Assembly (NCBI GenBank): GCA_001798075.1
Contig: MGRG01000002.1
Location: 46,631 to 110,630, forward strand
Direction of reading: 5' to 3'
Source of the DNA: Deltaproteobacteria bacterium RIFCSPHIGHO2_01_FULL_43_49
Lineage (GTDB): Bacteria > UBA10199 > SPLOWO2-01-44-7
Length of the DNA: 64,000 bases
Part shown: piece after piece, positions 2,129-63,017 of the stretch
Numbering within the stretch: the stretch's first letter is position 1
Layout: each line of letters begins with the position of its first letter
The notes under the pieces: model-generated
What the model was told of the DNA's origin: nothing
The model's input: only the letters and a program-made list of their open reading frames with translations
Databases searched by the model: none
Made by a program: the position numbers and the translations under genes

Positions 2129-3382
2129 ATGGAACTCATTTTATCAAAAAATTGGGGGGCTCCAAATCGAAGTGCCTATGCCTCTTTGCAAAAGCTTTTC
2201 AAGATGACTCCTGCGCAAGTGATTGAGGAGGTGAAGGCTTCAGGTCTACGTGGTCGCGGTGGGGCCGGTTTTTCGGCAGGTGTCAAATGGGGTTTTATTC
2301 CCAAAGACACAAAAAAACCGATTTATCTGATTTGTAATTTTGACGAAAGCGAGCCGGGAACCTTCAAAGACAGAGCGATTGCCGAAAAAGATCCCCACAT
2401 GATGATTGAAGGGATGATTATTGCGGCCTATGCAATCGGTGCCCACACAGCCTACATTTATATCCGCGGTGAATTTTACAAACAGTGGGAGATTGTAGAA
2501 GCTGCACTCAAAGAGGCCGCCGCAAAAGGATTTTTGGGAAAAAATATTTTGGGATCCAAATTTGATCTTGATATTTATCAGCATAGAGGTGCGGGCGCCT
2601 ATATTTGTGGGGAAGAGACAGCCCTTTTGTCTTCGCTGGAAGGTGGAAGGGGTTATCCCAGAATCAAGCCCCCCTTTCCGGCGATTGAAGGGGCATGGGG
2701 TTGCCCAACCATTGTGAACAATGTAGAGACCCTTTCAAATCTTCCCTACATTATTAATAACGGTGCCGCCGCTTTCAAAAAATTTGGGACAGAAAAAAGT
2801 TCTGGTACGAAATTAATTTCGGCCTCAGGCCACATCAACAAGCCGGGAGTTTATGAAGTCGAAATGGGGCTTCCTATTCGGACTTTTGTGGAGGAGTATT
2901 GTGGTGGTGTGTGGAAGGGCCGGAAATTAAAAGGGTTGGTGCCGGGTGGTTCTTCGTTTCCCGTTTTGACTGCAGAGGAAGCCTATAATGTGAATCTCGA
3001 TTTTGAATCGTGTGCGGCCGCCGGTACTTCGCTGGGTTCCGGTGGTTTTTATGTGATGGATGAAACGACCTGCATGGTCCGCATGTTACAATTTACTGCC
3101 AAATTTTATGAACATGAATCGTGTGGGCAGTGCACGCCATGCAGAGAGGGAACCGGTTGGGTTTCCCAAATTGTCAAAAGAATTGAAGAGGGAAACGGCC
3201 GCGATCGTGATTTGCAACTCTTGATTGATGTGTCCAATAACATGATGAATGGAAGAACAATTTGTGTTTTTGCCGATGCGCTGGCGATGCCGGTGATTAG
3301 TTATGTGACAAAGTTTAGAAAAGAATTTGAAGAGCATGTCCGTTTGGGAAAATGTCCGTACGCTAGTACGATGGTACGCTAG
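2129..3382 (+). CDS. nuoF: NADH-quinone oxidoreductase subunit F (51-kDa, FMN/NADH site)
   Basis: GLRGRGGAGF, YICGEETALL and ESCGQCTPCREG motifs. The stop TAG at 3380-3382 lies inside a 16-nt tandem duplication. Confidence 0.95.
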   Translation: MELILSKNWGAPNRSAYASLQKLFKMTPAQVIEEVKASGLRGRGGAGFSAGVKWGFIPKDTKKPIYLICNFDESEPGTFKDRAIAEKDPHMMIEGMIIAAYAIGAHTAYIYIRGEFYKQWEIVEAALKEAAAKGFLGKNILGSKFDLDIYQHRGAGAYICGEETALLSSLEGGRGYPRIKPPFPAIEGAWGCPTIVNNVETLSNLPYIINNGAAAFKKFGTEKSSGTKLISASGHINKPGVYEVEMGLPIRTFVEEYCGGVWKGRKLKGLVPGGSSFPVLTAEEAYNVNLDFESCAAAGTSLGSGGFYVMDETTCMVRMLQFTAKFYEHESCGQCTPCREGTGWVSQIVKRIEEGNGRDRDLQLLIDVSNNMMNGRTICVFADALAMPVISYVTKFRKEFEEHVRLGKCPYASTMVR

Positions 3383-3392
3383 TACGATGGTA
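3358..3392 (+). repeat. Tandem duplication of the 16-mer GTACGCTAGTACGATG (2 copies plus GTA) at the nuoF/nuoG junction
   Basis: Copies at 3358-3373 and 3374-3389 are identical. The second copy supplies the nuoF stop TAG and the nuoG ATG. Confidence 0.9.
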
Positions 3393-4916
3393 AAAATAAA
3401 AATAAACAATAAGGAAGTTGAGGTAGCGGAGGGGACGACGGTTTTGAAGGCAGCGCTGGCCAACAAAGTTGATATCCCTTATTTTTGTTATCACCCCAAA
3501 CTCTCGATTTCCGGCAATTGCCGCATGTGTCTGGTCAACATCAAGGGCCAGAACAAACCGGTCATTTCTTGTCGCGAAAGAGTGCGGGAGGGGATGGAGG
3601 TTGATACCAAATCAGAAGAAGTCAAAAAAATGCAGCAGGGAGTTTTAGAGTTTATTTTGGTCAATCATCCTTTGGATTGTCCTATCTGTGATCAATCGGG
3701 TGAGTGCGATCTGCAGGATAATTATTTTAAATTTTCGAAATTTCCCTCCCGCCTGGAAGATCAAAAAATCCATAAACCCAAAGTCAAATCACTGGGTCCT
3801 CTGGTCACACTTGATGATGAGCGCTGCATTGTCTGCACGAGATGTGTGCGATTTTGCGATGAGGTAGCAGGCACTCATGAACTTTGTGTGACCGAGCGTG
3901 GAGGACACTCCGAACTGACGACTTACCCTGGAAAAGAGTTAAAAAATCCTTATTCACTTTGCACAGTCGATGTTTGCCCCGTGGGAGCACTCACTTCCAC
4001 CGATTTTCGTTTCAAAAAACGGGTCTGGTTTTTGAAAACGACCCCTTCAATTTGTACCGGCTGTGCCACCGGCTGTAACATCAAGATGGATTGGGATGAT
4101 TCGGTGGTTTATCGCTACCGTCCCAGAGAAAATGAGGCGGTCAACCAATGCTGGATGTGCGATGAAGGAAGGCTTTCCTATAAATTTATTAATGATGCGA
4201 ACAGGGTTTTTGAACCTTTGCTCAAAAAACATGGGGAGTTTGAAGAAATAACTTGGGAAGGGGCTCTCAAACATATCGCTGATATTTGCTATGAAAATCC
4301 CAAGGTTCATTATATCGGTGTTTTATCGGCTCAAGCCAGCTGCGAAGAAAATTTCACCCTCCATTCCTTTTTGAAAAATGTTTTTCCAAAAGCCCAATTT
4401 TTGACGACAAAAAAAGAAGTGCCACACCCATCCCACGATGAATTTTTAATCGATGCGGACAAAAACCCCAATTCAAATTTTTTAGAATTGCTTGAAATTA
4501 AAGAAGCAGATGATTTTGCAAAAGAAGGGATATATTTTGTTTTGGAACATTTAACGAATGCTCAGAAAGAGGCCTTGATTATGGCCAAGCCAAAGATGGT
4601 TGTTTGGCTGGCCTCAAACTTAGGGGACGTTTCCCTTGCAGGGGGAACGTCCCCTAAGTTGTCCCCTCCGTTGTGGGCCGATGTGATTTTGCCAAAACCG
4701 ACTTTTGCAGAACAAGAAGGACACTTTATTAACAGACAAAAAAGACTTCAGAAAGCAAACAAGGCCTTCGAACCAAAGGGTCATGCGAGGCCTGTTTGGA
4801 TGGCTCTAGCAGAGCTTTCCAGAAAATTGGATAAGCCATTGGATTGGAATTCTTACCCAAATGTTTTTAAAGAAATGAGTCAGGAACTAAAATGGATTAC
4901 GCAATTGCAGCGCTAA
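3387..4916 (+). CDS. nuoG: NADH-quinone oxidoreductase subunit G (short form, 2Fe-2S plus 4Fe-4S N-terminal module)
   Basis: MVKIKINNKEVEV start at ATG 3387; the ORF-track start 3327 overlaps nuoF. CRMCLV, HPLDCPICDQSGECDLQ, CIVCTRCVRFC and CPVGALTS motifs. Carries an in-frame palindrome at 4618-4659. Confidence 0.85.
   Translation: MVKIKINNKEVEVAEGTTVLKAALANKVDIPYFCYHPKLSISGNCRMCLVNIKGQNKPVISCRERVREGMEVDTKSEEVKKMQQGVLEFILVNHPLDCPICDQSGECDLQDNYFKFSKFPSRLEDQKIHKPKVKSLGPLVTLDDERCIVCTRCVRFCDEVAGTHELCVTERGGHSELTTYPGKELKNPYSLCTVDVCPVGALTSTDFRFKKRVWFLKTTPSICTGCATGCNIKMDWDDSVVYRYRPRENEAVNQCWMCDEGRLSYKFINDANRVFEPLLKKHGEFEEITWEGALKHIADICYENPKVHYIGVLSAQASCEENFTLHSFLKNVFPKAQFLTTKKEVPHPSHDEFLIDADKNPNSNFLELLEIKEADDFAKEGIYFVLEHLTNAQKEALIMAKPKMVVWLASNLGDVSLAGGTSPKLSPPLWADVILPKPTFAEQEGHFINRQKRLQKANKAFEPKGHARPVWMALAELSRKLDKPLDWNSYPNVFKEMSQELKWITQLQR
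4618..4659 (+). repeat. P-type palindromic element (GGGGACGTT...AACGTCCCC), in frame inside nuoG
   Basis: ACTTAGGGGACGTTTCCCTTGCAGGGGGAACGTCCCCTAAGT. Near-perfect inverted repeat, encodes NLGDVSLAGGTSPKLS. Confidence 0.85.
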
Positions 4917-6148
4917 AAACAGCTTCGATCTTTCTTGTTGTGATCAGCATCGTACCCGTCTTGATCTGGCTGGAGCGAAAAGGTGCGGCCTATATCCAAG
5001 ATCGTCGTGGCCCCAATCGCGCCGCTATTTTGGGTGTGAGGCTGGGTGGGCTGATCAACAGTTTGAATGATGTCGTCAAACTTTTGTTCAAGGAAGATAT
5101 CATTCCAGCCAATGTCAACAAGCCCCTTTTTATTTTGGCTCCGATGATCGCCTTTTTTGTGGCAACGATTACTTTGGCGGTTATACCGTTTGCAGATCCA
5201 ATTCAGCTTGGTTCGACAAAACTTCTTCTGCAGGTCGCCGATTTGGATGCGGGGCTTTTGTATGTTTTTGCCGTCTCCAGTTTGGGAGTTTATGGTGTTA
5301 TGCTTGCCGGATGGGCAGCCAATAACAAATATTCACTTCTGGGAGGGTTGCGATCTGCTGCCCAGATGGTTAGCTATGAAGTTTCTTTGGGACTGGCTGT
5401 TGTAGGGATTTTTTTGATGGCGGGATCTTTGAAATTGACTGACATTGTGGCTTATCAGGGTTCTAACTTGTTTCATTGGAATATTTTGCTTCAGCCGGTT
5501 GCCTTCTTTATTTTTCTGACGGCGTTGTTTGCAGAGACCAATCGTTTGCCTTTTGATCTACCAGAAGGAGAATCCGAACTGGTTGCCGGTTTTCATGTTG
5601 AATACTCCAGCATGAAGTTCGCCCTCTTTTTTATGGCGGAATACGCCCATATCATTGTCGGCTCTTGTATCATTACAACTTTATTTTTTGGAGGCTGGCA
5701 TATTCCATTCGTTCCTGTCGATTTGATTCGGATGAATGCAGAACTCGTTGCACAGGGTTTGTGGATTGGTTTTGCTATTTTTTCAATCCTGGGTGGCGGG
5801 CTTTTGGTTAGGCGTTTCAAAAAAGGTAAGTATGGAGATTTGAGGGATTACGAGCCATTAGTGATTGGGGCACCAGGAATCCTGATAGGCTTTGCTCTCT
5901 TAGGTTTGTTTGCGATCTTCGCACAAGACTGGGAATTTCTTCCTTGGGGTAAAAATATTTTTATTGCCACCCTTCAAGCCGGTGTTTTTTTAGCGAAAGT
6001 TTTATTTTTCTGTTTCTTTTTTATCTGGGTGCGCTGGACGCTTCCCCGATTTCGCTATGATCAGTTGATGCGTTTGGGTTGGAAAGTGATGTTGCCCTTG
6101 GCATTGATAAATATTTTGGTGACGGGGTGGGTTGTTTTGCAAAGTTAA
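4892..6148 (+). CDS. nuoH: NADH-quinone oxidoreductase subunit H (ND1 homologue), long form
   Basis: LIWLERKGAAYIQDRRGPNR, AETNRLPFDLPEGESELVAGFHVEYS and RWTLPRFRYDQLM motifs. At 418 aa it is longer than the roughly 330 aa I recall as typical, with an extra hydrophobic segment before the last helices. Confidence 0.9.
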   Translation: MDYAIAALKTASIFLVVISIVPVLIWLERKGAAYIQDRRGPNRAAILGVRLGGLINSLNDVVKLLFKEDIIPANVNKPLFILAPMIAFFVATITLAVIPFADPIQLGSTKLLLQVADLDAGLLYVFAVSSLGVYGVMLAGWAANNKYSLLGGLRSAAQMVSYEVSLGLAVVGIFLMAGSLKLTDIVAYQGSNLFHWNILLQPVAFFIFLTALFAETNRLPFDLPEGESELVAGFHVEYSSMKFALFFMAEYAHIIVGSCIITTLFFGGWHIPFVPVDLIRMNAELVAQGLWIGFAIFSILGGGLLVRRFKKGKYGDLRDYEPLVIGAPGILIGFALLGLFAIFAQDWEFLPWGKNIFIATLQAGVFLAKVLFFCFFFIWVRWTLPRFRYDQLMRLGWKVMLPLALINILVTGWVVLQS

Positions 6149-7586: not shown

Positions 7587-8084
7587 ATGATGGAACCGAT
7601 TTTCTTTTATGGTTTTGGGGGGTTGGCGGTGGTCACAGCACTGTTGATGGTGACCAGGGTCAATCCAATTGCCTCGGCGGTTTGGCTGGTGGTCTGCTTT
7701 TTTGCCTTTGCCGCACTTTTTATAACGTTGGAAGCCCATTTTATTGGGGTCATTCAAGTGCTACTCTATGCTGGCGCCATCATGGTTTTGTTTATCTTTG
7801 TGATCATGCTTTTAAATATTGGAGCGGAAGAGCTCAAAGCAAGAACGATGCAGTTTTCAGGACTTTTGGGAGGATTAGTTACTATCTACCTCATTGTTTT
7901 GATCACACTGGGGCTTCTCAAAAATCCAGTCAGATTTTTTGAACCTTTGACGGAAGGGTACGGCTACGTTGCCCCCGTTGGACGATTATTGTTTACAAAA
8001 TATTTAGTGCCGTTTGAGCTGACATCCGTTTTACTTTTGGTTGCAATCGTAGGGTCAGTAGTGATGGGGAAGAGGAAGCTGTAA
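7587..8084 (+). CDS. nuoJ: NADH-quinone oxidoreductase subunit J
   Basis: 165 aa polytopic membrane protein in operon position before nuoK. VLLYAGAIMVLFIFVIMLL segment typical of ND6/NuoJ. Confidence 0.85.
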   Translation: MMEPIFFYGFGGLAVVTALLMVTRVNPIASAVWLVVCFFAFAALFITLEAHFIGVIQVLLYAGAIMVLFIFVIMLLNIGAEELKARTMQFSGLLGGLVTIYLIVLITLGLLKNPVRFFEPLTEGYGYVAPVGRLLFTKYLVPFELTSVLLLVAIVGSVVMGKRKL

Positions 8085-8098
8085 AAAATTAGAAATGA

Positions 8099-8167
8099 AA
8101 AATCAAAAACCAAAAATACAAACTAAGAATAAAAGTTTTTTGTTTTTAATATGTGTTTTTGGTTTTT
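8099..8167. repeat. Inverted pair of degenerate AAAAYCA-type heptamer arrays in the nuoJ-nuoK spacer
   Basis: AAAATCA AAAACCA AAAATAC AAACTAA at 8099-8126. The arm 8105-8120 pairs with 8152-8167 (TGTGTTTTTGGTTTTT) with one mismatch. Confidence 0.7.
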
Positions 8168-8191
8168 AACTTTTAATTTTTTATTTAGTTC

Positions 8192-8497
8192 ATGATGATT
8201 ACGTTAACACATTATTTAATTTTGGCTGCGGTGCTTTTTTGCATTGGTGTTTTTGGTGTTGTGGTGCGTCGCAATATCCTCATTATTTTTATGTCGATTG
8301 AATTGATGCTCTCTGCCGTCAATTTAGTTTTTTTATCTTTTTCCCGTTATTTAGGAACTCAAGATGGCCATGTCTGGGTCTTCATGGTTTTAACCGTGGC
8401 AGCAGCAGAGGCTGCAGTGGGGTTGGGAATCATTGTGGCCCTGTTTAGAAATAAACAGACTATCTATGTGGATGAAGTCAAAGAGTTAAAAGGTTAA
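8192..8497 (+). CDS. nuoK: NADH-quinone oxidoreductase subunit K
   Basis: 101 aa with three TM helices. [10 protein letters not shown] and [11 protein letters not shown] motifs of ND4L/NuoK. Confidence 0.9.
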
Positions 8498-51359: not shown

Positions 51360-51896
51360 TTAACTAACTACACGAAGTTTGGCAGGCATTAGCTCTTTCA
51401 AGCAGGTCGTTTCACAAACCGGGCAATCTTTGAGACCCGGGCAGGTTTCACTGAGCTGCCAAAATTTTTCCAAAACCTTTTTGACTTGAGGATCAGCAGA
51501 AGACATAAAACGAATGAAGGCTAAGAGATTTGCCCCCGTTTCTGAACTGATCAAATGTTCAATTTTGCAAGTATCGACTTCCGCCTGATACGGTTTTACT
51601 TTCAAGATGTCCTGGAAAAAGCGTTTGAGAACGACCTTCTTGCCAATGATTTCTTCTGCGACTCGTTTTCCATCGGGTGTCATCTGAAGAAATTTATTGG
51701 TATCCTCTTTAAGGTAATTTTTTTCAATCAACGCATGTAGTCCCATTGAAGCGGAGGACCTGGCAATTCCCAATTTTTTAGCGACATCGGCAGCACGCGC
51801 ATAACCCTGTTCACCAATCAAATCATGGACAGCAACCAGGTAGTGCGCCGCACTGTGTGTTAGTTGATTGGCTTCAAACTCTTTCCATACTTCCAT
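51360..51896 (-). CDS. DtxR/MntR-family metal-dependent transcriptional regulator with Cys-rich C-terminus
   Basis: N-terminal wHTH (SAAHYLVAVHDL...ARAADVAKKLGIARSSAS) and a dimerisation domain. C-terminal CPGLKDCPVCETTC. Confidence 0.8.
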   Translation of the reverse strand: MEVWKEFEANQLTHSAAHYLVAVHDLIGEQGYARAADVAKKLGIARSSASMGLHALIEKNYLKEDTNKFLQMTPDGKRVAEEIIGKKVVLKRFFQDILKVKPYQAEVDTCKIEHLISSETGANLLAFIRFMSSADPQVKKVLEKFWQLSETCPGLKDCPVCETTCLKELMPAKLRVVS

Positions 51897-51935: not shown

Positions 51936-51974
51936 ATAAATACCGCCAGGTACCAGGTACCTGGCGGTATTTAT
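51936..51974. repeat. Perfect 39-nt palindrome (19-nt arms, 1-nt centre) in the dtxR-like/mraZ divergent region
   Basis: ATAAATACCGCCAGGTACC A GGTACCTGGCGGTATTTAT. Confidence 0.9.
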
Positions 51975-59414: not shown

Positions 59415-60494
59415 ATGCTATATCACTGGCTCTATCCGTTGCACGATCAATTGGTGGCATTCAATGTCATCAAATATATTACCTTTCGCACCTTCATGGG
59501 CCTTTTTACCTCTCTGGGGATTGTCTTTGTCCTTGGAAAACCGTGGATTGCTTTTTTGCAACGACACCAATTGTTGCAAACACTATGGGAATATGTTCCC
59601 GAGACACATCATAAAACAAAAGCCAAGACGCCAACCATGGGAGGCATTCTCATCTGGTTTGCCTTTTTACTTTCGACATTGTTGTGGGCAAGATGGGACA
59701 ACCCCTTTGTCTGGATGATGTTGGGTTTAGGGTCGGCATTGGGTGCCATTGGATTTTTGGATGATTATTGGAAGATTTCCAGAAAAGATGCACACGGTCT
59801 TAAGGCCCGCTACAAATTTCCTTTGCAGGTTTTGGTGTGTGGGTTGGTGGCGTTAATTCTGTATGACGGATTTGGTTTTAATACCGAATTGTCGATTCCT
59901 TTTATGAAGCAGATCTCTCCTGATTTAGGAATGTATTATATTATTTTAGCTATTTTGGTGTTGGTGGGGACTAGCAATGCGGTCAACCTCACCGATGGTT
60001 TGGATGGTTTAGTGACAGGCCCTGCAATCATTGCCTTCATGACATACGGTGTTTTTGCCTACATTGCGGGCCACATCAAAATTGCCTCTTATTTGCAGGT
60101 TCCTTATGTTCCACAATGTGGCGAACTTTCTATTTTATGTGGAGCCATTGCGGGGGCCTTGATCGGTTTTCTATGGTTTAATTCCCACCCTGCTCAACTC
60201 TTCATGGGAGATGTAGGAGCTTTGAGCATTGGGGGAATGTTGGGATTGGTTGCTCTCTTGACGAAAAATGAACTTCTCCTTGTAGTTATTGGCGGTGTTT
60301 TTGTTTTGGAAACTCTTTCAGTCATTACGCAAGTGGTCTCTTTTAAGTTGAGGGGAAAACGAATTTTTCGAATGGCTCCTTTGCATCATCATTTTGAATT
60401 AAAGGGGTGGCCGGAATCAAAAGTGATTGTGAGATTTTGGATTATTTCCATGATTTTGGCCTTAGCAAGTATGAGCACATTAAAATTGCGATGA
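59415..60494 (+). CDS. mraY: Phospho-N-acetylmuramoyl-pentapeptide-transferase
   Basis: KTPTMGG, NAVNLTDGLDGL, MGDVGALSIGG and PLHHHFE motifs. Confidence 0.95.
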   Translation: MLYHWLYPLHDQLVAFNVIKYITFRTFMGLFTSLGIVFVLGKPWIAFLQRHQLLQTLWEYVPETHHKTKAKTPTMGGILIWFAFLLSTLLWARWDNPFVWMMLGLGSALGAIGFLDDYWKISRKDAHGLKARYKFPLQVLVCGLVALILYDGFGFNTELSIPFMKQISPDLGMYYIILAILVLVGTSNAVNLTDGLDGLVTGPAIIAFMTYGVFAYIAGHIKIASYLQVPYVPQCGELSILCGAIAGALIGFLWFNSHPAQLFMGDVGALSIGGMLGLVALLTKNELLLVVIGGVFVLETLSVITQVVSFKLRGKRIFRMAPLHHHFELKGWPESKVIVRFWIISMILALASMSTLKLR

Positions 60495-60807
60495 AGGTTG
60501 AACTTAAAAATAAAAAAGTTCTGGTCGTTGGCTTTGGAAAGTCAGGCCAGGCTGCTGCGCGCTATTGCATTGCCAAAGGGGCTCGCCTGGCAGTGACCGA
60601 TTTAAGAGAGAAAAAAGTTTTCAGCTATCAGCTATCTGCTTTCAGCGGGCATCCCATCGACTGGTATTTGGGTTCTCATAAGCTCGAAGTTTTCTTAGCG
60701 GCCGATTTGATTGTGGTGAGCCCAGGGGTTCCTTGGAACTTGGAGCCACTTAAAGAAGCAAGAAAAAAAGGAATTCCCATTGTAGGAGAGATGGAGTTAG
60801 CCATTGC

Positions 60808-60839
60808 AGACTCGAGACTCGAGACTCGAGACTCGAGAC
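60808..60839 (+). repeat. Heptamer array (AGACTCG)x4 plus a partial unit, in frame in murD
   Basis: Encodes DSRLETRDSR just upstream of the P-loop VTGTNGKTTT. Confidence 0.9.
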
Positions 60840-61396
60840 CAAAGATCATTGCTGTGACCGGAACGAATGGCAAGACCACCACGGTCAGCCTCATTCATCA
60901 TTTGCTACAAACTGCTGGGAAAAAATCTTTGCTCGCCGGCAATGTGGGGACACCACTTCTCGATTGTCTGGATCAAATAGCCGAGACTGAATTTTTAGTT
61001 TTAGAGGTCTCCAGTTATCAATTAGAAACGACTCCTTCTTTGAAACCCGATGTTGCTGTTTGGCTCAATGTGACTGAAGACCATCTCGATTGGCATGAAG
61101 ATTTTTTTACCTATGTGGCTGCAAAAACAAAACTCATTCGACAGGCCTCTCCGAATGGTTTGGTCATTTATAATGCAGAAGACAGCATGGTCACCCAAAG
61201 CGTGGAACAAATTCCAGCAACCCGTTTTTCCTTCAGCAGCAAACGACAATTAAAACTGGGGGGATGGGTAGAAGAAGGAGCTCTTTTATTGAAAATCAAA
61301 CCTACAAGCGAACCGCAGCGCTTTGATCTTTCTGAAATAGTTTTGAAAGGGATTCACAATTGGGAAAATATGTTAGCAGCATTGCTTGCCATTTCA

Positions 61397-61426
61397 GGGG
61401 ACGTTCCCCTGCAGGGGAACGTCCCC
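61397..61426 (+). repeat. P-type palindromic element, in frame inside murD
   Basis: GGGGACGTTCCCCTGCAGGGGAACGTCCCC is a perfect 30-nt palindrome. Same core and same reading frame as the nuoG copy (SGDVPLQGNVPL). Confidence 0.9.
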
Positions 61427-61871
61427 CTCCTGCAAAAAGCTTTAGAAACTTTCGTTCCCCTTCCCCATCGTATGCAAGAAGTGAGGCAGGTCAGCGGTGT
61501 CACCTATATTAATGATTCAAAGGCCACCAATGTCGGGGCTGCTGTTAAGGCCTTGGCCAGTCTCAAAGCCCCCATTTTCTGGATCGCCGGAGGTAGGGAC
61601 AAGGGGGGGAGTTACGAACCGTTAAAAGAGTTGGTAAAAAAAAAGTCAAAAAAACTTACCTTTTTGGAGAAGCCAAACAAAAAATGGCCGCTCTGTTCCA
61701 AGAATGTGGAGATATTGTGATGACTAAAGATTTGAAAGAAGCCGTTCTGCTTATTTCAAAAGAGGCGAAATCGGGAGACACCGTTTTATTTTCTCCTGCT
61801 TGTTCCAGTTTTGACATGTTCAAAGATTATGAAGAACGGGGAGAAGCTTTTATCAATTTAGTAAAAAGTCT

Positions 61872-63017
61872 ATGAAAAATTGGGATGAAAATACAGTACG
61901 ACACACGAGATTTGATTATCCTTTGTTAATTATTGTCGTGTTGCTTTCTGGTCTGGGCTTAACGATGGTTTTCAGTTCCTCAGCCGTTTTGGCGCAGGAG
62001 CGTTTTGGAGACGGTCTTTTTTTCCTGAAAAAAATGTTAACCTACGCTTGTCTAGGATTTGCGGTGATGTCTCTCATCATGCGTGTTCCATACCTTTATT
62101 GGAAGAAATTAGTTTATCCTCTTTTTATTATCAGTTTTATTTTTATGCTTCTCACGCTTTATTCAGGATTGGGGTTGACGGTTAGTGGGGCTAGACGTTG
62201 GATTATTCTTGGGCCTTTTCATTTTCAAACCTCTGAGCTAGCAAAAATTGTCATTATTTTGTTTCTTGCCTATTCGCTTGAAAGAAAGAGCGAAAAAATG
62301 GAGCGTTTCGCCGTTGGTGTCGCCCCCAATATATTAATTCCAGGTATTTTGGTTTTGATGGTGTTGTTCAGCAAAGATTTGGGGACTGCCTTTGTGATGG
62401 GACTATTAATTGTTACGATGCTTTTTTTAGGGGGAACCAGTTTCAAACATCTCTTTTTTCTTTTTTTAGGTGCTGTCCCAATGTTTTTTTATCTTATCTT
62501 CCAAGAAGGTTACCGTGTCCGAAGAATCACTGGGTTTTTGAATCCGTGGGCCGATCGTTACGGTGCCGGTTTTCAAATGATCCAATCGTTGTTGGCCTTC
62601 AGTGAAGGAGGGATTTTGGGAAAAGGGTTGGGGGCTGGGCAACAAAAATTATTTTATCTGCCAGAGGCCCATACTGATTTTATTTTTTCCGTTTTGGGAG
62701 AAGAATTGGGGCTCATTGGCGTGATCATGACGATCGTCTTTTTTTTACTTTTTTGTCATCGAGGAATCAAGATTGCGACACAAGCACCCGATCTTTTTGG
62801 ACGCTATTTAGGGTTGGGGATTGTGATTTTGATTGGCCTCCAAAGCTTGCTCAATATGGCTGTTGTGATGGGCCTGCTCCCAACAAAGGGGCTTGTTTTG
62901 CCGTTTATCAGCTACGGCGGCTCGGCGTTAGTTATGACATTATTTAGTGTCGGCATTTTGTTGAATATTTCTATGTATCAGGCAGCGGGAACGCCGCCGA
63001 TGTTTAAAAAACGATGA
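61872..63017 (+). CDS. ftsW: Peptidoglycan glycosyltransferase FtsW (SEDS family)
   Basis: 381 aa polytopic protein. RWIILGPFHFQTSELAKI, PEAHTDFIFS and LPFISYGGSA motifs. Confidence 0.93.
   Translation: MKNWDENTVRHTRFDYPLLIIVVLLSGLGLTMVFSSSAVLAQERFGDGLFFLKKMLTYACLGFAVMSLIMRVPYLYWKKLVYPLFIISFIFMLLTLYSGLGLTVSGARRWIILGPFHFQTSELAKIVIILFLAYSLERKSEKMERFAVGVAPNILIPGILVLMVLFSKDLGTAFVMGLLIVTMLFLGGTSFKHLFFLFLGAVPMFFYLIFQEGYRVRRITGFLNPWADRYGAGFQMIQSLLAFSEGGILGKGLGAGQQKLFYLPEAHTDFIFSVLGEELGLIGVIMTIVFFLLFCHRGIKIATQAPDLFGRYLGLGIVILIGLQSLLNMAVVMGLLPTKGLVLPFISYGGSALVMTLFSVGILLNISMYQAAGTPPMFKKR

Follow-up and report, generated by a model that had tools for sequence, protein, structure and literature searches.

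The window analysed here is a 64,000-nt stretch (64 kb) of contig MGRG01000002.1 from Deltaproteobacteria bacterium RIFCSPHIGHO2_01_FULL_43_49. It carries two related palindromes, one inside nuoG and one inside murD. Both had been marked in an initial annotation made from the sequence alone, and both proved to be real, in position as well as in their common core; the nuoG palindrome, given there as 42 nt, is actually 44 nt long (4617–4660). The features are as follows.

3387 to 4916, plus strand: nuoG, NADH-quinone oxidoreductase subunit G, short 509-aa form (Pfam)
4617 to 4660: hairpin copy 1, a 44-nt palindrome inside nuoG
4623 to 4635: left 13-nt core arm of copy 1, with T at the variable position 10
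4642 to 4654: right 13-nt core arm of copy 1, with G at the partner of position 10
4656 to 4667, plus strand: extra right-arm copy, decayed, AAGTTGTCCCCT
60491 to 61875, plus strand: murD, UDP-N-acetylmuramoylalanine--D-glutamate ligase, in two open reading frames (ORFs), 60491–61720 and ~61684–61875
61397 to 61426: hairpin copy 2, a perfect 30-nt palindrome inside murD

Copy 1 (AACTTAGGGGACGTTTCCCTTGCAGGGGGAACGTCCCCTAAGTT as a whole) is built as AACTTA-GGGGACGTTTCCC-TTGCAG-GGGGAACGTCCCC-TAAGTT, with TTGCAG as the loop between the 13-nt core arms. A repeat finder gave two arms of 22 nt each (4617–4638 and 4639–4660), 91% complementary with a spacer of 0, and position 10 and its partner form a G-T/G-U pair between the arms. 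Copy 2 (GGGGACGTTCCCCTGCAGGGGAACGTCCCC) is built as GGGGACGTTCCCC-TGCA-GGGGAACGTCCCC; its arms (61397–61411 and 61412–61426) are 15 nt long and 100% complementary, again with a spacer of 0. The arms common to both copies are GGGGACGTT(C/T)CCC and GGG(G/A)AACGTCCCC. Exact GGGGACGTTNCCC was found four times in the window, and all four were arms of the two palindromes. With two or fewer mismatches, 17 matches were found, versus 4.0 ± 2.2 in shuffles. A covariance model of the family, described below, scored 55.5 bits at the nuoG site and 45.9 bits at the murD site; the next score in the window was 13.8 bits, with nothing between. Predicted RNA folding energies were −39.5 (nuoG) and −30.7 kcal/mol (murD), with z of about −5.8. 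No T-tract follows either stem (the next bases are TAAGTTG in nuoG and CTCCTGC in murD), and a terminator scan called neither window copy, indicating that the window copies are read through and are not terminators.

The initial annotation took the two palindromes as copies of one repeat family, and this was borne out. An exact-pattern scan (GGGGACGTTNCCC, 2–10 nt, GGGNAACGTCCCC; 24 specified bases, position 10 and its partner free) matched 78 loci in a one-genome-per-species set of bacteria and archaea and 98 loci in JGI metagenomes. After duplicates were removed, 173 distinct hairpins were obtained; by our own estimate, about 0.02 matches to the exact-arm pattern were expected by chance. The exact-pattern scan of IMG/VR gave no match, and the consensus had no BLAST match in plasmids, phages or E. 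coli genomes.

The hosts were groundwater and sediment metagenome-assembled genomes (MAGs) of Gammaproteobacteria, Omnitrophota, Aminicenantes and the window lineage, which is labelled 'Deltaproteobacteria'. Copy number ranged from about 4 to dozens per genome. The gammaproteobacterial hosts were several related MAGs, with at least 20 copies in one and the consensus CTAAAGGGGACGTTCCCCTTTAAAGGGGAACGTCCCCTTTAG. The Omnitrophota form was AAAA-GGGGACGTTTCCC-variable loop-GGGAAACGTCCCC-TTTT. Copies in an Aminicenantes MAG had 5-nt loops, those in an unclassified high-GC MAG had G at position 10, and two MAGs of the window lineage had exact-pattern hairpins. Large host contigs differed in G+C content: 66% for a 1.8-Mb gammaproteobacterial contig (CAVZUU010000002.1, from one of the high-copy MAGs), 64% for an 827-kb Aminicenantes contig and 48% for a 647-kb Omnitrophota contig, with 43% in the window lineage. 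One host MAG, CAZEBD (L016–L081; loci are numbered with L throughout), is labelled 'uncultured Planctomycetales'. Several of its contigs were syntenic with Omnitrophota, with proteins 75–95% identical, suggesting that this NCBI label is probably imprecise.

Pairing within the hairpins was analyzed over the whole set. The base at position 10 was the complement of its partner in 162 hairpins out of 173, with four pair types, and the covariation at this position comprised U-A 41, C-G 20, A-U 2 and G-C 2. The six free flanking positions on each side also covaried (AU, UA, GC, CG and GU pairs). The covariation score was reached by 0 of 500 shuffles, and slid controls scored much lower. The unit is therefore a stem of some 20 bp whose middle is invariant, whereas its outer part and the loop vary freely. 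The central 13 bp, GGGGACGTT-N-CCC paired with GGG-N'-AACGTCCCC, were essentially invariant. The outer stem added about 5 bp of varying sequence, as a rule rich in A 5' of the core and rich in T 3' of it. The loop was 2–10 nt long, most commonly 6, and reached about 20 nt in L028 and L052. Besides a few copies that had decayed, the gammaproteobacterial loci included sub-variants with the arm GGGGACGTTCACC, with longer loops or with partial units in tandem.

Several genomes carried identical hairpins at different places. In one gammaproteobacterial MAG, 17 of 20 hairpins were identical at unrelated loci. Three loop types were repeated among the 16 hairpins of the Omnitrophota MAG CAZEBD, three of the four hairpins of MAG CBDUXZ were identical, and in MAG JAUYJH the nuoG copy and a copy in a Peripla_BP_2 gene were the same 32-mer. 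Loops were genome-specific; those of the window genome (TTGCAG, TGCA and TGGCA) were all TGCA-like. Identical hairpins at unrelated loci of one genome indicated that copies were made or homogenised within genomes.

Extra copies in the window genome were searched for by comparing Logan contigs of four runs with both window sites. In three of the four runs, other contigs matched the hairpin alone, at window-contig depth (35x, 36x and 48x), and the summed depth of the hairpin was about 4.5x the baseline. These results indicated that the window genome has at least four copies. The two additional ones, known from 30-nt flanks, are copy C (...TTTTTTCAATCACTTA-hairpin-TTTTTGCGGATGG..., loop TGGCA) and copy D (...CTTTAAAAATT-hairpin-GTCTGGGGGG...), and both have AT-rich, terminator-like flanks. 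The window lineage has about 4–5 copies, and half of the known ones are intragenic. The initial annotation had named two copies only, with no intergenic relatives, as the outcome that would speak against a repeat family; the genome proved to have two or more further copies, and intergenic relatives were numerous.

Most copies of the family were intergenic, adjoined gene ends and looked terminator-like. In gammaproteobacterial MAGs, real genes (with high GC content at third codon positions) stopped at a distance of 1–25 nt from the hairpin, in many cases with convergent genes on its two sides, and the flanks CTAAA and TTTAG held the TAA/TAG stop codons of the neighbouring genes. By our own reading, the consensus of these MAGs (e.g. 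L024 2051–2093) contains stops in three frames on both strands; stops in every frame would explain why gammaproteobacterial copies stay at gene ends. A T/U tract followed the stem in many Omnitrophota-type copies (AAAA...TTTT) and in copy C of the window genome. Genes next to hairpins were ordinary, and those bracketed by hairpin pairs included aroQ, gap, recA and typA. In Omnitrophota, hairpins were kept at orthologous intergenic positions where the flanking proteins were 75–80% identical and the loops were different; at one such site, the GGGGACG/CGTCCCC foot alone was retained with a different interior. At the Omnitrophota locus L028 962–1633, two hairpins flanked an ORF6N-domain gene, and the orthologous intergenic region of a second species (L080 7430–7458) had a single hairpin between two genes.

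In-frame copies were also found outside nuoG and murD: in a Peripla_BP_2 gene (L070), at the N-terminus of an Fe-S oxidoreductase (L180) and on an Omnitrophota-type contig, where the copy is read GDVSPGGGNVP (L064 5100–5132). Arm 1 corresponded to G-D-V at all five independent in-ORF sites. The L064 hairpin joins two heptosyltransferase-like halves into one 675-aa ORF, which may be a gene fusion via a hairpin without its former flanking stop.

Both window palindromes are stop-free, and in both GGG GAC GTT would be read in the same frame as G-D-V without breaking the ORF, in agreement with the initial annotation. The peptide is N-L-G-D-V-S-L-A-G-G-T-S-P-K-L for copy 1 in NuoG and G-D-V-P-L-Q-G-N-V-P for copy 2 in MurD; the hairpin peptide stretches are GDVSLAGGTSPK and GDVPLQGNVPL, respectively. 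The NuoG ORF has the Pfam domains Fer2_4, NADH-G_4Fe-4S_3, Fer4_Nqo3 and Molybdopterin, and the hairpin peptide lies directly N-terminal of the conserved WAD(V/I)(I/V)LPKPTFAEQ strand of the molybdopterin-like domain. GDVxLxGGTSP was present in three of about 60 closest homologues (the window protein, P0003 and P0004). NuoG relatives at 70–75% identity had a five-residue WEPSx loop at this site, and more distant ones had an unrelated insertion of about 45 residues in the same loop, indicating that the loop is variable in length. The net gain in NuoG was about 12 residues.

The MurD ORF (60491–61720) has the domains MurD-like_N, Mur_ligase_M and Mur_ligase_C. Most MurD relatives read ...LA-S-PYIKD-xx-LLQKGL... 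at the hairpin site. Among about 30 closest homologues, four had the hairpin peptide (window, P0122, P0150 and P0126) and two single-arm forms, P0124 and P0127, had 'GDVP' alone. Compared with a solved MurD structure, the peptide takes the place of the helix-loop AKLAGISN, with a net change of about +2 residues. The homologue alignments, which the initial annotation had proposed as a check, indicated that the peptides are lineage-specific. Its statement that both palindromes add a peptide held for NuoG, where the alignments point to a net insertion; in MurD, a loop of similar length (PYIKDxx) was replaced. It had also expected surface loops, and both peptides do sit in variable loops.

The locus is present in a groundwater MAG (GCA_001798335.1, 124-kb contig) and in three further assemblies, and the murD palindrome was found in all four. 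Sampled 31-mers of 60900–61900 were all present in nine sequencing runs from several studies. The closest named homologues carry the label 'Deltaproteobacteria bacterium' MAGs.

The two sites were then compared among contigs encoding the NuoG and MurD homologues.

murD site, window: GGGGACGTTCCCC-TGCA-GGGGAACGTCCCC
murD site, L083: arms as in the window, loop GAAT
murD site, L084: arms as in the window, loop TTTAAT; an additional G makes arm 1 read as GRSP
murD site, L085: GGGGACGTTTCCC-TTTT-GGGAAACGTCCCC, a compensatory double change at position 10
murD site, L086 and L087: single arm GGGGACGTTCCCC
murD site, L088 and L090: without hairpin
nuoG site, hairpin present: window (loop TTGCAG), L069 (TTGAAG) and L073 (AAAAAA)
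nuoG site, L089: empty

The reading frame was kept in every orthologue. Pairwise arm identity was 150/156 nt at the murD site and 76/78 nt at the nuoG site (96–97%), whereas the 25 + 25 flanking codons were 63–67% identical and their synonymous third positions, which are saturated, 47–50%. This comparison is unbiased evidence for arm invariance, whereas the database set is invariant by search design. The nuoG gene of L073 has an intact tandem extra right arm, GGAACGTCCCCT, whose window counterpart has decayed to AAGTTGTCCCCT. The extra arm is an internal control: the unpaired arm copy of the window has diverged, and the paired arms stayed intact.

Neighbour-joining trees of MurD and NuoG were built with the loop columns left out. 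In the MurD tree, hairpin bearers were scattered: P0126 grouped with the empty P0136 and P0139, P0122 was sister to the empty P0123, and P0150 was sister to the empty P0125. In the NuoG tree, empty lineages lay between the window sequence and P0003/P0004. The empty loops (PYIKD and WEPSx) were shared and ancestral-looking, suggesting that the hairpin was gained several times or moved laterally. L085, with the hairpin, and L088, without it, were 88–93% identical over murD–ftsW, yet a patch of about 60 nt round the hairpin was unalignable between them and was similar to the allele of L084, a member of a different clade. L085 came from the same sample as one contig of the window organism. This pattern is consistent with homologous recombination having carried the hairpin allele from one co-resident relative to another.

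The empty sites themselves bear some likeness to the arm. The empty nuoG site of L089 (~3250–3275) reads CTG TGG GAA CCT TCT, in which TGGGAACCTTC resembles the arm GGGGAACGTCC; the empty murD site of L088 (~3900–3915) has CCTTACGTT, CCT TAC GTT, with ACGTT in common with the arm. As evidence for a target sequence, this likeness was too weak to call, and may be chance or a hint of preference.

The murD gene also goes out of frame about 240 nt downstream of the palindrome, at an A9 run near 61640 (within 61637–61660) that has nothing to do with the palindrome. To give the full-length protein, murD requires a −1 shift at GTA AAA AAA AAG (~61637–61648). The same A9 run and the same shift were found in the murD of L084, and five further MurD homologues leave the frame after the same KKKS; L086 has an extra T in a T9 run instead, and other relatives are in frame. 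The A9 allele was reproducible in nine runs. A_AAA_AAG is the classical dnaX slippery heptamer. The shift may reflect programmed −1 frameshifting or transcriptional slippage, here in an essential gene, or a recurrent homopolymer error.

The explanation we favour, and to which we give about even weight, is that the window palindromes belong to a family of dispersed, non-autonomous hairpin repeats similar to repetitive extragenic palindromic elements (REPs and REPINs) or to minimal miniature inverted-repeat transposable elements (MITEs). Identical hairpins at unrelated loci, genome-specific loops, gene-end sites, and sub-variants together with decayed copies all point to mobile repeats. Copies would be generated by a sequence-specific trans-acting enzyme recognising the arm or the stem base, most likely a single-strand HUH/Y1 transposase similar to REP-associated tyrosine transposases (RAYTs). 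Insertions into genes would survive only where the peptide is harmless and no in-frame stop arises; here the surviving sites would be loops of NuoG and MurD that are variable or lie at the surface, with G-D-V-(P/S)... as the reading. Homologous recombination of short patches would next carry hairpin alleles from one related, co-resident lineage to another, which would explain the patchy phylogeny at exactly the same loop.

Several observations weigh against a mobile repeat. No transposase, RAYT or recombinase was found near the copies in about 1.1 Mb of loci; the Pfam search for partner genes covered 60 + 10 hairpin-adjacent ORFs and, for the 60, the 25 families listed first out of 73 matched. 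When the ORFs of all loci were clustered all against all, generic families alone emerged (ECF sigma factors, oxidoreductases, GGDEF, response regulators). The flanks were complementary, not directly repeated, and gave no clear target-site duplication; TA, itself a palindrome, stood beside the core in about 1/3–1/2 of copies, indistinguishable from an extension of the palindrome. The REP hallmark 5' GTAG was absent, the hairpin foot being (A/T-rich)-GGGGACG, and identical arms across phyla are out of the ordinary for REP families, as these tend to be specific to one lineage. Recurrent occupation of one and the same loop in a gene would require either targeting or lateral allele transfer. The arm identity of 96–97% against 47–50% at synonymous positions looks like purifying selection on the nucleotide sequence, and a passive selfish insertion would not predict it unless copies were continually re-homogenised. 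The covariance model, run with filters off, found no degenerate copies in the window. Near-invariant arms, decay of the unpaired arm and the lack of decayed window copies would not be expected of passive insertion, and together they call for ongoing homogenisation or drive by some machinery, or a host-level function. The initial annotation had foreseen neither arm invariance across phyla nor conservation above the neutral expectation, and a 'decaying selfish insertion' would not predict them.

We tentatively consider that the invariant 13-bp stem may be the recognition element of an undescribed trans-acting system common to distant phyla. Such a system could be a new hairpin-specific mobilisation or 'homing' machinery that creates copies, also in coding loops of essential genes, and re-homogenises them, or a conserved factor that uses the hairpins as RNA or DNA signals. 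The copies in nuoG and murD would then be maintained by selection or drive and would not be passive relics.

The main alternative, less probable than the mobile repeat but a serious rival to it, is a host-functional cis element. The hairpin would be a structured motif in RNA, or in DNA that is single-stranded or cruciform; a conserved trans-acting factor would recognise its 13-bp stem by sequence, and purifying selection would keep it as a 3'-end, processing or stability signal or as a protein-binding site. It would cover the copies in nuoG and murD, genes located midway through the long nuo and dcw operons, and the excess of arm identity over flanking synonymous identity speaks for it. So do the decay of the unpaired third arm in nuoG but not of the paired arms, the compensatory double change at position 10 in L085, an outer stem that covaries while its sequence is free, the window without decayed copies, and the Omnitrophota hairpins that persist at orthologous intergenic positions. 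In other phyla, moreover, hairpins sit exactly at gene ends with A/T tracts like bidirectional terminators; the window copies, however, have no T-tract and hence are not terminators. No candidate factor is known, and at both sites the hairpin is missing from close relatives that do well, such as L088 beside L085 at about 90% nucleotide identity. Identical, genome-specific loops suggest copying instead of independent selection, a genome holds about 4 to dozens of copies, and an intragenic stem of 13–20 bp offers no obvious benefit to an essential gene. Chance, convergence or an assembly artefact can be regarded as effectively refuted. The G4 and C4 runs are simple sequence and all hosts are metagenome-assembled, but the sequence was identical in four independent assemblies and nine runs, different sequencing technologies and studies contributed, the frame was preserved in every orthologue, and 24 specified bases are common to 173 distinct copies.

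Two further explanations are both very improbable. A signal like a DNA uptake sequence, a 13-mer favoured by the competence machinery and spread by uptake bias and recombination, would come as inverted pairs that also act as terminators, and would find its way into coding loops without breaking the frame, like the uptake sequences of Neisseria and Haemophilus. Invariant arms with variable spacers, position-10 'dialects', a recombination patch centred on the hairpin, a lateral and patchy distribution, the single-arm murD forms of L086 and L087, and in-frame copies with a frame preference are consistent with it. Single-motif counts led us to reject it: GGGGACG occurs 8 times in the window, 4 of these inside the two hairpins, and outside hairpins it stayed at or below the composition expectation in every lineage except MAG JAHFSU (7 vs 1.8 expected, in two short loci). 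Few to tens of copies per genome are also far under the ~1 per kb of known uptake sequences, and the same signal in unrelated phyla would be unexpected. The hairpin would hardly be a site-specific recombination site either (13-bp inverted arms with a short spacer, similar to loxP, FRT, dif or attC) that moves gene cassettes. The 13 + (~6) + 13 layout with a commonest loop of 6 would suit one, mismatched position-10 'dialects' could be recombinants, and the single hairpin of L080 against the flanked ORF6N gene of L028 resembles a cassette difference. The cassette idea that this pair of loci suggested was rejected because hairpin pairs bracket ordinary housekeeping genes (recA, gap, aroQ, typA). 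A spacer of 2–10 nt, up to ~20, is a range that a double-strand tyrosine-recombinase site does not tolerate, no recombinase was nearby in the loci inspected, and copies in essential genes make no sense as cassette sites.

Three other features of the window were recorded. At 51936–51974, a perfect palindrome of 19 + 1 + 19 nt, ATAAATACCGCCAGGTACC-A-GGTACCTGGCGGTATTTAT, lies in the intergenic spacer that separates mraZ from a DtxR-like iron-dependent repressor gene (51360–51896, minus strand). Its sequence is unrelated to the hairpin family, and it may act as an operator or terminate transcription in both directions. In the nuo operon, the gap between the ORFs at 7587–8084 and 8192–8497 is filled by an AT-rich inverted repeat (8086–8186, about 100 nt; 49-nt arms, 80% complementary, 3-nt spacer). 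NuoH (4892–6148) is 418 aa long, and the Pfam NADHdh model of 298 positions spans residues 11–411, indicating about 100 extra residues, apparently additional hydrophobic segments.

The hairpin-repeat family is apparently undescribed, as the initial annotation supposed when it did not recognise the core. Rfam gave no match in the window and no family at its gathering score; below threshold, a plastid 3'UTR hairpin model reached 39 bits against a threshold of 53 with gammaproteobacterial copies. Literature searches for the arm sequences returned unrelated primers only, and no relevant paper printed the arms; keyword searches returned general repeat papers and PARCEL only.

Among known systems, REPs and REPINs have much in common with the family: they are short, imperfect palindromes rich in GC, keep the stem while the loop varies, and stand in inverted arrangement at gene ends or between convergent genes, in positions like those of terminators and mRNA stabilisers, with a genome-specific 'master' sequence and its variants. 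REP-like copies, dispersed and mainly extragenic at gene ends, were found in the Gammaproteobacteria and Omnitrophota MAGs. REPs are, however, lineage-specific and extragenic by definition, whereas the present arms cross phyla and are translated at at least five loci. Since the 5' GT(A/G)G head and a RAYT were both missing from the DNA inspected, REP membership is unproven. Correia-type MITEs of Neisseria likewise have terminal inverted repeats and a variable interior, are non-autonomous, are often flanked by TA and may act as terminators, and they are known for a TA duplication and for effects as promoters too; the present unit is much shorter (arms of 13–20 nt), its TA duplication is inconsistent and no autonomous partner is known.

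Inverted pairs of DNA uptake sequences and uptake signal sequences (DUS/USS) resemble the family in their invariant 10–13-mers, in pairs that form terminators, in in-frame copies in poorly conserved segments, in dialects and in their association with recombination tracts. Unlike them, the present family has no excess of single copies, is far sparser and crosses phyla. PARCELs and the GC clusters or 'byp' elements of yeast mitochondria are also palindromic mobile sequences found in coding regions of scattered hosts. PARCELs are longer and encode amphipathic repeats. Ribosomes bypass byps, whereas the present hairpins always preserve the frame, indicating ordinary read-through, not bypassing.

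Rickettsia palindromic elements (RPEs), with which the initial annotation had associated the palindromes, are about 100–150 bp long (RPE-1 to RPE-10) and confined to Rickettsia and close relatives. As in the present case, they are palindromic repeats that lie in frame in genes, add a short peptide in permissive regions and also have non-coding copies. They are reportedly the elements of Ogata et al. in 2000. The kinship did not hold: the present unit is 30–44 nt, not 100–150 nt, occurs in other phyla and has DNA arms that are almost invariant at orthologous sites. The difference is drawn by length and hosts, and no relationship in sequence is expected. By this comparison, the family is not an RPE, and RPEs offer an analogy in outcome only. 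The window nevertheless offers a clean natural example, outside Rickettsia, of proteins gaining loop peptides from repeat DNA.

Annotation pipelines for these uncultured groups could mask the motif or use it to mark where genes end. Should the hairpins depend on a dedicated enzyme or binding factor, it would be a new, widely transferred hairpin-recognising system, with a bearing on genome evolution, terminator design and possibly sequence-specific tools for single-stranded DNA or RNA. Short palindromic repeats such as REPs, MITEs and RPEs are usually lineage-specific and decay after insertion, whereas the 13-bp stem described here is identical across phyla.

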